A stretch of DNA of 64,000 nt from assembly GCA_038087875.1 (NCBI GenBank), contig CM075989.1, positions 7,070,001-7,134,000 on the forward strand, written 5' to 3'. A program made the translations under genes and the position numbers. This document shows positions 19,685 to 60,514 of the stretch, piece by piece. How positions within the stretch are numbered: position 1 is the first letter of the stretch; each line of letters starts with the position of its first letter. This DNA is from Malacoraja senta. Its lineage: Eukaryota. A model generated the notes under the pieces. The model saw only the letters and a list, made by a program, of their open reading frames with translations. It did not search any database and was not told where the DNA came from.

Positions 19685-20010
19685 CCTCTTCTTCAGCCCT
19701 TTGCTCCTTTTATGGAGCATAGGCCATTGACAAATGTCCTCCATCTCACTCGGTTGTTGGTAGTTATTTCGAGATCTCCCCAGTTGAGCCCACTCTCAGA
19801 CAGTTGAGCCCTGAAGCGACCTCTTTTCCTTTTCCTTGGGGGTTCCATTTCAGGGCTTTCCGGGTGATGTTTGTGGCAGGTTTCCTGAGGATGTGCCCAA
19901 TCCAACTCCATTTTCTCCTTTGAATTTGTAAGTCAATGGGCTCCTGGCTTGTTCTTTTCCACAGGTCCACATTGCTTACTTTGTCTCTCTTACATGGCCT
20001 CTTCACGCAG
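19685..20010 (-). mobile_element. RTE-clade LINE 3' fragment
   Basis: DKVSNVDLWKRTSQEPIDLQIQRRKWSWIGHILRKPATNITRKALKWNPQGK; GAA-like tail. Confidence 0.88.
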
Positions 20011-20034
20011 ACAATACAGAGTTTTATAGACAGT

Positions 20035-20272
20035 ACAGAGTGTATGGAGTTTGTAAGATCTCCCCGTGACCTGCGTGAGTTTGCTCCAGGGGCTCCGGTT
20101 TCCTTCCACATTCCAAAGGTGTAGAGGTTTGTAGGCTAATTGCCTTCTGTAAATTGTAAATTGTCCCCAGTGTGTGTAGGAAAGTGTTATTGTATGGGGA
20201 TCGATGGTGGGCACGGACTCGACGGGCTGAAGGGCCTGTTTCTACGCTGTATCTCTAAACTAAACTATACTA
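20035..20272 (+). mobile_element. HE1-like V-SINE, 5'-truncated
   Basis: V-domain and tail. Confidence 0.85.
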
Positions 20273-20550: not shown

Positions 20551-20899
20551 GAATTGTGAAATTCTATAACATACAAACTCATAGCTGATGTGGAACCACA
20601 TGTGACTCTAGAATTCTTTACCAATGCATACCATGGAATTAAATTGAAAATTTAAAAAGTACTGTAGATGCCAGATATCTGAAATAACAACAGGCTAGAA
20701 ATGCTCAGCAGTTCTGGCAACATCTGTGGAAAAAGAAGCAGAGTTCATATTTTAAAATGACTACTCTTCACCAGGACTGGTAGAAAACCTAAACCGTTAG
20801 CTCGGCTTCTCTCTCCACAGATGCTGCCTGACCTGTTGAGTGTTCGCAACGCTTTTTGTTTTTGAATCAAACTGAGAACCATAGAAATGTAAAGATTCA

Positions 20900-21497
20900 T
20901 CGGACTGTGGAGGACTTCAAGTACCTGAGAGAGAGGATGCAGAGCTCGGAGAATGATATCAAGGTCCGGAAAGCACTCGCATGGAAAGCCCTCAATAACA
21001 TGGGGAAAATCTGGACGTCTCGGATGTGTAAGGGTCTCAAACTGAGATTCTTCCATTCAACTGTAGAGACCACATTGTTGTACGGGTGTGAGGCATGGAC
21101 TCTCACTCGGGTACTGTCCAAGTCTCTCGATGGTACCTACACCCGAATGCTCAGAAAAATTCAAAATGTCACCAACGCCCAGCTCTATGGGGAGATTCCA
21201 CCTCTGACCGAGAAGATCAGGTGGAGAAGGATGAGGCTCGCTGGTCACTTCCACCGCCACTCAGAAACGACCAGCAAATAAGGTTGTGCTGTGGGATCCC
21301 ACCCATGGAAGATCTGACCCGGGACGGCCAATCAAGGCTATGCTGAAGACGTTGATGGAAGGCGCATGTGTAGAGACAAAAGAGGAGCTTGCCAGCTGCA
21401 TGGAGGACAGAGATGTGTGGTGCGTCCGTCACCGTGCCTGTCGGAAACCAGCACCACTGCGTCATCAATGTTTTCAATGATTTAATAATAATAATAT
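20900..21497 (+). mobile_element. RTE-clade LINE 3' fragment
   Basis: VEDFKYL..SSENDIKVRKALAWKALN.M.KIW..LKLRFF.STVE..LLYGCEAWTLT..LDGTYTRMLR..RRMRLAGH; (TAA)n tail. Confidence 0.9.
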
Positions 21498-27751: not shown

Positions 27752-28790
27752 ACATAGAAACATAAAAAATAGGTGATGGAGTAGACCATTTGGCCCTTCG
27801 AGCCGGCACCGCCATTCAATATGATCATGGCTGATCATCCAAAATCAGTACCCAGTTCCTGCTTTTTCCCCATATCCCTTGATTCCGTTAGCACAAAGAG
27901 CTAAAACGAACTCTCTCTTGAAAACATCCAGTGAATTGGCCTCCTGCCTTCTGTGGCAGAGAATTCCACAGATTCACAACTCTCTGGGTGAAGAAGTTTT
28001 TCCTCATCTCAGTCCTAAATGGCCTACCCTTTATTCTTAAACTGTGACCCCTGGTTCTGGACTCCCCCAACATGGGGCACATTTTTCCTGCATCTAGCCA
28101 GTCCAATCCCTTAAGAATTTTATATGTTTCTATAAGATGCCCTCTCATCCTTCTAAATTCCATGAATACAAGCCCAGTTGACCCATTCTTTCATCATATG
28201 TCAGTCCCGCCATCCTAATCTGACATCATTCAGATAATAATCTGCCTTCTTGTTCTTGCCACCAAAGTGAATAACCTCACATTTATCCACATTATACTGC
28301 ATCAGCCCACTCACCCAACCTATCCACGTCACCCTGCAGCCTCATAGCAACCTCCTCATAGCTCACACTGCCACCCAGCTTTGCGCCATCCGCAAACTTG
28401 GAGATGTTACATTTAATTCCCTCGTCTAAATCATTAATATATATTGTAATTAACTGGGGTCCCAGCACTGAGCCCTGCGGCACCCCACTAGTCACTGCCT
28501 GGCATTCTGAAAAGGACCCGTTAAATCCTACTGTTTGCTTCCTGTCTGCCAACCAGTTCTCTATCCATGTCAATACCCTATCCACAATGCCATGTGCTCT
28601 AATTTTGCACATTAATCTCTTGTGTGGGACCTTGTGAAAGGCTTTTTGAAAGTCCAGATACACCACTGGCTCTCCCTTATCCATTCTAGTTGTTACATCT
28701 TCAAAAAATCCAGAAGATTAGTCAAGCATGATTTCCCCTTCATAAATCCATGCTGACTTTGACCGATCCTGTCGCTGCTTTCCAAATGCA
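27752..28790 (-). mobile_element. CR1 LINE reverse transcriptase fragment with 3' UTR (internal deletion near 28216)
   Basis: VYLDFQKAF.KVPHKRL..TSGVPQGSVLGPQL..IYINDLDEGI..SKFAD; C-terminal motif and (CTATGTTT)n-type tail. Confidence 0.93.
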
Positions 28791-32476: not shown

Positions 32477-32617
32477 GTGGGAGATTGCAACCCTCAAGTG
32501 ATCTGCCGCCCTGTTTCGACGAATGCAATCAACCTGGCGTGCACAATCAAATAAGATCAAATAGAACAAGTTGTCCTACAACTTTAGGCTGTGCACGCCA
32601 TATGCAAGAAGAAGAAG
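32477..32617 (+). mobile_element. Short retroposon with HDV-like ribozyme head and (GAA)n tail, copy 1
   Basis: 11-bp TSD ATCTATACCAT (32466-32476, 32618-32628); close match to 49517-49656. Confidence 0.85.
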
Positions 32618-33351: not shown

Positions 33352-33630
33352 AACTGCAGGAATAGAGCCAGATCTGCTTCTGTGTCAGAACTGTACCGAT
33401 GCCAAGTCAGGCAGTTACTTTAATCAAAAAGCAAAAAAAACTCCAAGTGGTGGAAATCTGAAAAAGGTATAGAAAATGACCAAAATGTCAGACAGCATCT
33501 GTGGAGAGGAAAACAGAGAGATGTGTATAAAATTATGAGACATAGTAGGCAGTCAGAACCTATTTCCTAGAATGGAAATATGAAATACTCGAGGGTAAAG
33601 GTGAGAGGGGCAAAGTTTAAAGGAGATGTG

Positions 33631-34213
33631 TTGTACAGGGTCTTGGTGAGACCACACCTGGAGTATTGCGTACAGTTTTGGTCTCCAAATCTGAGGAAAG
33701 ACATTGTAGCCATAGAGGGAGTGCAGAGAAGGTTCACCAGACTGATTCCTGGGATGTCAGGACTTTCATATGAAGAAAGACTGGATAGACTTGGCTTATA
33801 CTCGCTAGAATTTAGGAGATTGAGGGGGGATCTTATAGAAACGTACAAAATTCTTATGGGGTTGGACAGGCTAGATGCAGGAAGATTGTTCCCGATGTTG
33901 GGTAAGTCCAGGACAAGGGGTCACAGCTTAAGGATAAGGGGGAAATCCTTTAAGACCGAGATGAGGAAAAACTTTTTCACACAGAGAGTGGTGAATCTCT
34001 GGAACTCTCTGCCACAGAGGGTAGTTGAGGCCAGTTCATTGGCTATATTTAAGAGGGAGTTAGATGTGGCCCTTGTGGCTAAGGGGATCAGGGGGTATGG
34101 AGAGAAGGCAGGTACGGGATACTGAGTTGGATGATCAGCCATGATCATATTGAATGGCGGTGCAGGCTCGAAGGGCCGAATGGCCTACTCCTGCACCTAT
34201 TTTCTATGTATCT
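33631..34213 (+). mobile_element. Young CR1 LINE 3' fragment nested in an older CR1/HER1 fragment (33520-34440)
   Basis: Uninterrupted ORF2 C-terminus to the stop at 34125 (LVRPHLEYCVQFWSP..RGDLIETYKIL..FFTQRVVNLWNSLP); ATGTG duplicated at both junctions. Confidence 0.93.
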
Positions 34214-48816: not shown

Positions 48817-49516
48817 CCTCTCCCACTGAGTCATGATATATGTCAGCGTCAAGATGTTATGCAACTTGTAAAGAAAACTTGGGAAGCTGAAGTTTCATCC
48901 AAATGACTGGAGCCATGGGATAGCATGATGCTGGCAAAGTGAGTGAACACTTAAGCACAAGGAATCTCCACTCATTTGCTACATAAATATGTAATCATAT
49001 TCACCATAATGGTAAAATAAATATTGTATGCTCCAATTGCAATGTTTACTTTTTATTAGCAGGAATTGAAAGTTAAATGAAAGTTAAATAAGTAGGGAAA
49101 AAAATGCTGAAAATGTTCGGCAGGGCATTTAGTGTGTACTGTTAATGCTTCAAGTCGATCTTTCATCAGTTCTGAAACGTTTGCTCTCTTTCTGTTCCCA
49201 CAGATGCTGACTGACTAGCTGAGTATTTTTGTATTATGTTTCAGTTTTGTGGAAGCTGCAGATATTTTACTATTGGACTAAAATAGTAGGGAGAGGTCCC
49301 ATTACCTACAATTAGAACACAATCTAAAAGCGAACCACATTCAAAGATTTCCTTTGCTCCATAAATGCTGCCTGACCCGCTGAGTTTCTCCAGCATTTTT
49401 GTTTACCTTCAAAAATGACAAGTTGTGATCTGGAAATGTAAGGGGCCTCATCTCCCATCCACCTCCTTCAATGTTATTTGGTGTTGACTCTTACCAACTA
49501 CTGACACTGTAAAGGT

Positions 49517-49570
49517 GGGGTGGGAGATTGCAACCTTCATGTGGTCCGCCCTGTTTCAACGAATGCAATC
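49517..49570 (+). ncRNA. Minimal HDV/CPEB3-like self-cleaving ribozyme (predicted)
   Basis: P1 GGGGUGG/CCGCCCU, P2 GAUUGCA/UGCAAUC, P3 ACC/GGU, L3 UUCAUGU, J4/2 CGAA. Confidence 0.8.
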
Positions 49571-49656
49571 AACCTGGCGTGCACGATCAAATAAGATCAA
49601 ATAGAACAGGTTGTCCTACAACTTTAGGCTGTGCACGCCATACGCAAGGAGAAGTA
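49517..49656 (+). mobile_element. Short retroposon with HDV-like ribozyme head and GAA-like tail, copy 2
   Basis: 14-bp TSD GACA(C/T)TGTAAAGGT (49503-49516, 49657-49670). Confidence 0.87.
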
Positions 49657-50196
49657 GACATTGTAAAGGTGCAAGATGCATGCTTCAAAACCAAATATTG
49701 AATTTTCTGAAGCACAAGGTGCTGGAGGAACTCAGAGGGTCAGGCATCATCTATGGGGGGAAAGAACAAGCAACGTTTCGGGTCAGGACCCTCCTTCAGA
49801 CCGCTGTGATTCCCAGTGCTCGCCAGCTGTTCAACCATTTTCTGACCCAGACTCGCTACTACAGCCATTGTGTCTTTCCTCAGCACTCGATTTACACACA
49901 AGAGTCTGAAGAAAAGGTCGCGACCCGAAACGTTATTTGTCCATTCCCTCCGGAGATGCTGCCAGACCCGCTGACTTCCTCCAGAACTTTGTGCTTTGCT
50001 CAAGTTTCCAACATCTACAGTTTCTTGTGCCTCCATATGATTTTCTATTTCAGCTTTGGTACTGAGGATGCTTGAATGACATTAGAACAAGATCAGTTGG
50101 GGAAAAAAAGGTTTAATAGGTAATAATTTTGCCCAGAGAACCATTATCACCTGAGCACATCAGGTTAAGAAAATATAACATTCTAGAAATAGTTTT

Positions 50197-59179: not shown

Positions 59180-59710
59180 TAAGAATAAGGGGTCGGCCAT
59201 TTAGAATGGAGATGAGGAAACACTTTTTCACACAGAGAGTTGTGAGTCTGTGGAATTCTCTGCTTCAGAGGGTGGTGGAGGTCGGTTCTCTGGAGACTTT
59301 CAAGAGAGAGCTAGATAGGGCTCTTAAAGATAGCAGAAGCAGGGGATATGGGGAGAAGGCAGGAACGGGGTACTGATTGGGGATGATCAGCCACGATCAC
59401 ATTGAATGGCTGTGCTGGCTCGAAGGGCCGAATGGCCTAATGCACCTATTGTCTATTGTCTCATGACAATTCCAACTGCTAGGAATGGTGGACTCAGCCC
59501 AGTCCATCATGTGTACAGCCCTTATCATCTTCAAATGCATTGGCATGAGGTGCCTACTTCAAGAAGGCAGCATCTATCATCAAGGATCTCCACCATCCAG
59601 GCAATGTCCTCTTCTTGTTAGTACCATCAGGCAGGAGAAACAGAAGCCTGAAGTCCCACACCAAATTCAGGATCAGTGACTTTCCTACGGGTTTTAAGTT
59701 CTTGAATCAA

Positions 59711-60514
59711 AATGATAGCAGGCAGCCTTGGAAGCCTTACCCCACTACTCAAGCCTCACGTCAAAAACCTTGGCGTGATATTTGACTCAGCGCTGAAATT
59801 TGACAAACAAGTCAATGCCGTGGTAAAAGCTAGCTTCTTTCAGCTTCGGACGATAGCTAAAATAAAACAATTCCCCCACTTTGATGACCTCGAAAAGATC
59901 ATCCACACATTCATCTCCTCCCGCCTAGATTACTGCAACTCCCTTTACACTGGCATCAGCCAATCTTCCCTGTCCCGCCTGCAACTGGTCCAAAACGCCG
60001 CAGCGAGACTCCTGACGGGCACCCGAAAAAGGGACCACATCACCCCGTTCCTGGCCTCTCTCCACTGGCTCCCTGTGCGGTTCCGTATAAACTTCAAGAT
60101 CCTCCTCCATGTCTACAAAGCCCTCAATGGGCTTGCCCCCACCTACATAAAAAGTCTTCTCACCCACCACTCCACCTCCAGGTCCCTCAGATCGGCCGAC
60201 TTGGGTTCCTGAATATCCCGCGGTCTAGGCATAAGCTCAGGGGCGACCGCGCCTTTGCAGTTGCAGCCCCTAGACTGTGGAACAGCATCCATTTCCCATC
60301 AGAACTGCCCCCTCCATCAACTCTTTTAAGTCAAGACTAAAAACTTATCTATACTCCCAAGCCTTTCCTGACGTCCTCTGAGTGAGGGCTACATGTATAT
60401 ATGTATGTAGTTTGTTTGTTTGTGCTATTCTTATAACAAATGTAAAGCACTTTGGCCAACGAGAGTTGTTTTTTAAATGTGCTATATAAAGAAATGTGAC
60501 TTGACTTGACTTGA
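59711..60514 (+). mobile_element. L2-clade LINE 3' fragment
   Basis: VKNLGVIFDS.L.F..Q..SSRLDYCNSL..LQLVQNAAARLLT..HITP.LASLHWLPV.FRI.FKILL; (GACTT)n tail; CTTGAATCAA at both ends; nested in a Rex-like fragment (59484-60800). Confidence 0.94.

Follow-up and report, generated by a model that had tools for sequence, protein, structure and literature searches.

A short retroposon headed by a predicted minimal HDV-like ribozyme, its Vingi-type partner LINE and a probable relationship to the mammalian CPEB3 ribozyme

The window, a stretch of 64,000 nucleotides of Malacoraja senta DNA, harbours at 49517-49656 of its forward strand one copy of a retroposon of about 140 nt, whose first 54 nucleotides form a well supported, predicted minimal HDV-like ribozyme. 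Judged by sequence comparison, the element is non-coding and non-autonomous and derives by internal deletion from a Vingi-type LINE of the same genome, here called V1. It is probably freed by predicted self-cleavage at its first base, G1, and moved by the protein of the LINE. We further consider it very probable, from the sequences compared below, that the CPEB3 ribozyme of mammals descends from the head of a Vingi element. The widest reading is that Vingi LINEs across animals share an HDV-like head, that this head repeatedly gave rise to tiny retroposons in this genome (two of them without P4), that the CPEB3 ribozyme is a domesticated form of it and that the link has not appeared in print; on balance we favour this reading.

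Inspection of the window copy located all helices where the sequence-only reading had placed them: P1, P2 and P3, the GU and C49560 were all present, and so was the target-site duplication that it had described as adjoining G1. The features of the window copy, and of a second copy in the window, are:

49503-49516 (+), 5′ target-site duplication, 14 bp, 13/14 identical to 49657-49670
49517-49570 (+), predicted minimal HDV-like ribozyme with P1, a 2-nt J1/2, P2, P3 and L3
directly 5′ of G49517 (+), predicted cut site
49517-23/49546-52 (+), P1, opened by a wobble of G1 with U
49526-32/49564-70 (+), P2, 7/7 paired
49533-35/49543-45 (+), P3
C49538-G49553 (+), P1.1, one pair only
49553-54 (+), GU after P1
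within 49517-49570 (+), P4 remnant, a single U-A pair closing a 3-nt loop
C49560 (+), putative catalytic C in J4/2, part of the predicted ribozyme core
49517-49596 (+), LINE 5′-derived segment covering the ribozyme and ~25 nt of 5′ UTR (nt 1 to ~80 of the partner)
49575-49640 (+), long hairpin in the 3′ half with 10-nt arms at 49575-84 and 49631-40
49597-49610 (+), linker at the deletion junction, 14 nt, partly duplicating the preceding bases
49611-49645 (+), LINE 3′-derived segment with the last codons, the stop codon TAG (49625-27) and 3′ UTR
49646-49656 (+), (AAG)n tail, two changes from a pure repeat
49657-49670 (+), 3′ target-site duplication
32477-32617 (+), second, more decayed copy, 92% identity

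Two details of the earlier reading hold for the window copy but not for the family. The L3 sequence UUCAUGU arose by a C>T change at 49540, the family state being UUCACGU, and the vestigial P4, UUCAA in the window copy, is UUCGA in most copies. The tail, which had been called GAA-like, is better written as (AAG)n. The second copy, flanked by an 11-bp duplication (32466-76/32618-28), is devoid of the first three G, has an altered P3/L3 and a 3-nt insertion, and was not matched by ribozyme model R1. Rfam searches gave no match at gathering level across the whole window, and an E-value scan of the 49517 locus returned only five weak matches, all unrelated. Nested folding of the whole element was unremarkable (z of −1.1 and −1.2), a measure that is uninformative here because the proposed structure is a pseudoknot. 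The 3′ half, on the other hand, was tested in copy L006, a near-majority copy, where it folded with a z of −4.0 and none of 200 shuffles was equally stable. One arm of its hairpin comes from the LINE-5′ part and the other from the LINE-3′ part. Two substitutions relative to the LINE lengthen the pairing of these arms (49575-49584/49631-49640) from 7 to 10 bp, and an intermediate state with 9-bp arms is common among the copies; selection on this hairpin is possible.

To assess the fold, 23 copies from seven families of the genome were aligned. In this alignment 91% of the helix cells were paired, a value that fell to 39-51% when the alignment was slid. Changes on both sides of a pair numbered 82 against 22.7 in shuffles, a level reached by 0/500 shuffles, although relatedness within families inflates these cell counts. 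Other measures of covariation were unexceptional, since the number of pairs with a both-sided change was reached in 38/500 shuffles and that of further pair types in 95/500. Seven positions were invariant in the 23 copies (T20, T21, C22, T26, G37, T38 and A46), including the C22-G37 pair, and C44, the putative catalytic C, was kept in 22 of them. A structure descriptor had no matches in 263,574 or in 83,450 shuffled bases. Moreover, further Vingi-type families of the genome carry the identical fold directly upstream of their ORFs. P1, P2 and P3, proposed at the outset from one copy, covary as helices, and the fold is kept across the sister families by compensatory change. The whole is a nested double pseudoknot of P1, P2, P3 and P1.1 with the conserved core of HDV-like ribozymes (L3, the G of P1.1, and the C and A of J4/2), and its predicted cut site is the boundary of the element.

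We then determined how the element is represented in the genome. In 1.94 Gb, an internal 22-mer matched 8,129 times and a 3′ 22-mer 6,718 times (≤1 mismatch), whereas the reversed 22-mers had none in the same genome; the family thus comprises about 8,000 or more copies. Ninety loci were fetched, 75 of them distinct; 30 had been selected as the best full-length matches and so lean towards completeness. The start lies at nt 1-3 in 70 of the distinct loci. Duplications of at least 7 bp, mostly 9-15 bp with a median of 11, flank 62/75 loci compared to 3/75 controls, and directly adjoin G1 in 47 of the 62 (hand count). When 30 loci were picked by a 3′ motif alone, 26 were full length; among the other four, one was truncated at nt 20, another at nt 89, and two share only the last ~40 nt. 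Forty full-length copies from two motif-chosen sets differed from the majority by 4.4% on average, and P1, P2, P3, P1.1 and the catalytic C were all intact in 24 of them. A SINE-sized retroposon with its 5′ end at the predicted cleavage site, which had been anticipated from the single copy, was recovered, in high copy number. Duplications of variable length together with a simple-repeat tail are as in SIDE-type elements. A tRNA-derived (Pol III) SINE was considered and rejected, as ARAGORN found no tRNA gene in the element and its head is the LINE's own 5′ end. The family is also present in sequencing runs labelled as other organisms. At both tested CpGs, the family as a whole shows two to three and a half times as many G>A as C>T changes; subfamilies that propagated, or cDNA-strand editing, could account for this.

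The partner, a 3.1-kb single-ORF APE-RT LINE in the genome of the element, shares both ends with it, as the earlier reading had foreseen for a LINE: the element consists of the first ~80 nt and the last ~40 nt of V1. Element nt 2-77 are 91% identical to LINE copy L143 and nt 1-82 are 87% identical to L123, while nt 95/100-138 match LINE 3′ ends at 80-97%, with the end of the frame visible in L061. This locus has only the last ~40 nt in common with the element; upstream lies a frame that ends in a CCHC-type finger and whose stop codon corresponds to window positions 49625-27. An upstream walk from L061 passed through endonuclease and RT domains and then reached the same ribozyme head, the number of candidates falling from 481 at the 3′ end to 126 at about 1 kb and 18 at about 2.3 kb upstream of it. 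PF14529/PF03372 (endonuclease) and PF00078 (RT) were detected in broken V1 copies, and none of the copies examined has an intact frame, all being broken. One full-length copy, L160, is flanked by an 11-bp duplication. The ATG of V1 lies about 110 nt from its 5′ end, which gives a 5′ UTR of that length, and its head differs from that of the element by U5-A for U5-G and by CUAA for CGAA in J4/2.

An intermediate was also found, L123, in which 80 nt of the head are fused to a 1.5-kb tail at the junction point of the short element. The 14-nt linker (49597-49610) had no match in the LINE 5′ or 3′ ends. The element is hence bipartite in the manner of a SIDE, with LINE 5′ and 3′ ends, the linker besides and no ORF, and the initial view of a SINE headed by an RNA gives way to that of an internally deleted LINE derivative. 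Some LINE copies contain inverted 5′ pieces; of the 15 rows listed, duplicate loci included, 11 have the end of the piece at LINE nt 2-18 and four have it at nt 63 or 138. This fits a template that began near G1, be it by cleavage or by transcription. Inverted pieces of the extreme 5′ end were seen in many truncated V1 copies (L112, L116, L125, L141, L148, L157, L094, L097 and L108); the pattern resembles twin priming near the ribozyme.

The sequence-only reading had suggested an RTE LINE as the partner. To our knowledge, RTE LINEs have none of the following, all of which were found here: a ~110-nt 5′ UTR and a C-terminal CCHC-type finger in V1, and Vingi-type heads in its sisters. An RTE partner was therefore discarded; the LINE that has both ends in common with the element shows the architecture of Vingi. 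Relatives of V1 have single endonuclease-RT frames of ~1,000 aa on contigs of ~3.3 kb, among them P0005 (72% identical), with a single frame of 1,019 aa. No RNase H family was detected among the 120 relatives listed, nor in six V1 pieces, P0005 or three sister ORFs. Vingi elements are defined by a single ORF with an APE endonuclease followed by an RT (PMC13708176), the order found here, and the absence of RNase H separates Vingi from Ingi. A FastTree RT tree of V1, its sisters and one short outgroup joined V1 with the sisters, its deep nodes being weak. The assignment of V1 as Vingi-type is suggested by its architecture and by sister 5′ ends that match Vingi ends in Repbase.

By analogy with R2 and L1Tc/NARTc, we infer cleavage, lack of a promoter and mobilisation in trans. 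Read-through from a host promoter would transcribe a copy of the element. The 54-nt nested double pseudoknot would then cut before G1, freeing an RNA that starts with the first base of the element. The APE-RT protein of the LINE would bind the common 3′ end with its (AAG)n tail, and insertion would follow by target-primed reverse transcription. Owing to the shortness of the RNA, most copies would be full length and keep the ribozyme, while LINE copies would be mostly truncated; the large excess of short copies would be due to this difference.

It is unlikely, although the best of the competing explanations, that the head acts mainly as an internal promoter, like Pr77 of L1Tc, or as one of Pol III type, with transcription beginning at G1 and the ribozyme, which lacks P4, being slow or no more than a vestige in this family. 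Pr77 of L1Tc/NARTc combines promoter and ribozyme (PMC4035085), and sharp 5′ ends are equally consistent with a start site. Poly(A) reads were at hand from another organism, where individual copies are indistinguishable and most are decayed; no pile-up of RNA starts at G1 was seen in them, and 132 and 129 reads, 261 together, continued upstream past G1 into unrelated flank. As to the catalytic C, genome-wide counts were 221 for C44T, 423 for G45A, 192 for C41T and 693 for G42A, with 2,637 intact; C>T at C44 is not rarer than at the neighbouring CpG and no selection on this base is shown by these counts. However, stem sequences vary between families with pairing kept, which is predicted for an RNA structure and not for a DNA promoter. 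Against a promoter also stand the boundary of the element, which coincides exactly with the HDV cut position, and the lack of a tRNA gene. Furthermore, the alligator element SINE2-1_AMi, which has a tRNA head upstream and whose 7-bp P4 stem is that of the CPEB3 ribozyme, has two alignment-invariant L3 bases changed, as expected if an active ribozyme, which would cut off the tRNA head, had to be disabled. We retain predicted self-cleavage at G1 as the preferred reading.

The asymmetry at the catalytic CpG was discarded as functional support, since the neighbouring CpG is equally skewed: among the first 100 listed copies, hand counts gave 12 G>A and 4 C>T at the catalytic CpG, and 16 versus 8 at its neighbour. 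In the poly(A) reads, in which the family is represented but strand cannot be assigned, the skew between sense and antisense depth was greater than that of a neighbouring repeat and is given no weight here.

The likeness to the CPEB3 ribozyme was examined with the Rfam model RF00622 (cut-off of 35 bits). For L006, CPEB3_ribozyme was the best Rfam match with G1 in register, but at 17.5 bits (E 0.021) it stays below the cut-off, and the window copy had no match. The genome as a whole gave 51 matches, 39 of them above the cut-off and the best at 64.2 bits (59 candidates scored), whereas 14 control genomes had none. Thirty loci fetched with this model consist of heads of a LINE family, V3, and of four short families, B-E; the element family is called A. 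Members of these families include:

L213-L216, L218, L219, L222, L223, L229, L232 and L193:633-3674 (− for L193), V3
L233, L235 and L239-L242, family E, about 135-175 nt, P4-less
L224, L226, L228, L234 and L237, family C, old and low-copy, about 105 nt
L217, L221 and L225 (family B); L227, L230, L236 and L238 (family D), short ribozyme-headed repeats

V3 accounts for 12 of the 30 loci, and an endonuclease frame was detectable in nine. It is a young LINE family with 96-99% identity between copies, open frames of 876-1,014 aa and a head that scores up to 64 bits; some copies repeat the first half of the ribozyme in tandem at the 5′ end. In family E, duplications of 11-12 bp and AAG tails occur in five of six copies, and by eye its 3′ end resembles that of the LINE in L195. 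The P4 stem of family C is that of CPEB3, and a wider search retrieved only four copies of it. No duplication was present in 12/12 copies of families B, C and D; as retroposons, these three are less secure than A and E.

Among other LINEs, a strict descriptor matched 0/16 further loci of this genome, many of them truncated or decayed, and model R1 matched 3/16. A fifth LINE family, L200:552-623 (+) and L203:3691-3762 (−), has P3 and L3 flanks in common with family A, while its J4/2 aligns poorly. Only 4/20 metagenome LINE loci with a 5′ region matched the descriptor, three of them from one family. A Vingi-type LINE family from metagenomes (L271-273) reached 55.6 bits, with 35 of the first 37 ribozyme bases as in the CPEB3 consensus. 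L277 and L285 are metagenome Vingi-type LINEs with HDV-like heads whose stems are not CPEB3-like.

The supplement of PMC5786205 (2018) gives 5′ ends of the Repbase elements Vingi-2_Gav (gharial), Vingi-4_Crp, Vingi-2_SPur and Vingi-1_BF. Compared by eye with the CPEB3 consensus, Vingi-2_Gav agrees at 38/40 positions before P4 and 14/14 after it (52/54 in total), and Vingi-1_BF at 34/40 and 12/14. The ribozyme would then be the standard 5′ end of Vingi across animals, and the likeness to CPEB3, taken in the sequence-only reading for a resemblance, would be one of shared descent. The element itself has the topology, the 2-nt J1/2, the L3, the GU, the single-pair P1.1 and the CGAA of the mammalian ribozyme, but it is without a P4 stem, and by eye family A differs from the Rfam consensus on both sides of 10/17 helix pairs, all of which still pair. 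Unlike the mobile, multi-copy element, the CPEB3 ribozyme is single-copy and intronic. It has been reported as unknown outside mammals.

Could Vingi heads and the CPEB3 ribozyme be alike because both converged on an optimal HDV-type sequence? Small ribozymes can converge, and in this genome no CPEB gene shares a contig with any of the 51 matches to the CPEB3 model (59 candidates scored). Nevertheless, we consider convergence quite improbable and infer descent from a Vingi head because the identity extends over the P1, P2, P3 and P4 stems, whose sequences are not fixed by catalysis, compensatory double mutants restoring activity (PMC9901934); because HDV and CPEB3 ribozymes have only six bases in common (PMC2950038); and because the human genome keeps an ancient trace of Vingi, X12_LINE (PMC5753468). 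The exchanged pairs of family A likewise argue against a single optimal sequence.

Least probable is that the fold persists because the RNA uses it otherwise (5′-end protection, start of translation or binding of the RT protein), with cleavage incidental: such roles have been proposed for R2 and L1Tc ribozymes (PMC6765202, PMC13708176), but the retained putative catalytic C and L3 core speak against it, and a role in translation would be pointless for a non-coding element.

Ribozyme-headed bipartite elements as such are known from trypanosomes and R2, and the kind of element is not new. NARTc, RIME and SIDER of trypanosomatids (L1Tc/ingi clade) are likewise bipartite with a ribozyme head, whose activity is demonstrated whereas that of our element is predicted (PMC4035085). 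The present family differs in its vertebrate host, its size of ~135 nt, its ~8,000+ copies, a nearly lost P4 and the (AAG)n tail. Bipartite Vingi derivatives with internal deletions are known from hedgehog, namely those of Vingi-1_EE, together with Vingi-derived parts of SINEs (Kojima 2011, as cited in PMC5786205). The R2 SIDEs of Drosophila also combine a ribozyme head with a 3′ recognition end and move in trans; R2 belongs to the RLE elements and targets 28S rDNA specifically, in contrast to the dispersed and APE-driven element described here (PMC3414825). A P4 domain is absent, too, from minimal HDV-like and theta ribozymes, which come from metagenomes and phages, whereas the minimal form found here heads a vertebrate retroposon (PMC10879173).

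In the open literature we found no description of a Vingi with a ribozyme or of a link between Vingi and CPEB3, the search not extending to Webb 2009, Webb and Luptak 2011, Ruminski 2011 and Kojima 2011; nor did we find, in a search that left Repbase, Dfam, patents and bioRxiv supplements aside, a record of the element family. Sea urchin, lancelet and lamprey were reported by Webb 2009 to have active HDV-like ribozymes; these may be Vingi heads like the ones described here, and their CPEB3 likeness was perhaps already noted.

Among human ribozymes, that of CPEB3 is the best studied, and it has been linked to memory. With Vingi heads, the outgroups that were lacking and a specific donor would be at hand, which makes the origin of the CPEB3 ribozyme testable. 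With its predicted ribozyme, Vingi would join the LINE clades known to bear ribozymes. Minimal ribozymes without P4, whose origin has been described as undetermined, would gain a eukaryotic home. Vingi-1 is also used in RNA-only gene-writing platforms that retain the Vingi-1 5′ UTR (PMC13708176); if its head is self-cleaving, this would bear on the design of gene-writing templates.

The window contains other repeats as well. LINE fragments are located at 19764-20135 (−), 20832-21281 (+), 28292-28717 (−), 33571-34125 (+) and 59706-60212 (+), which we take from their motifs to be RTE-, CR1- and L2-like. In addition, many copies of a ~320-bp repeat and of a ~100-bp repeat are found in the window.
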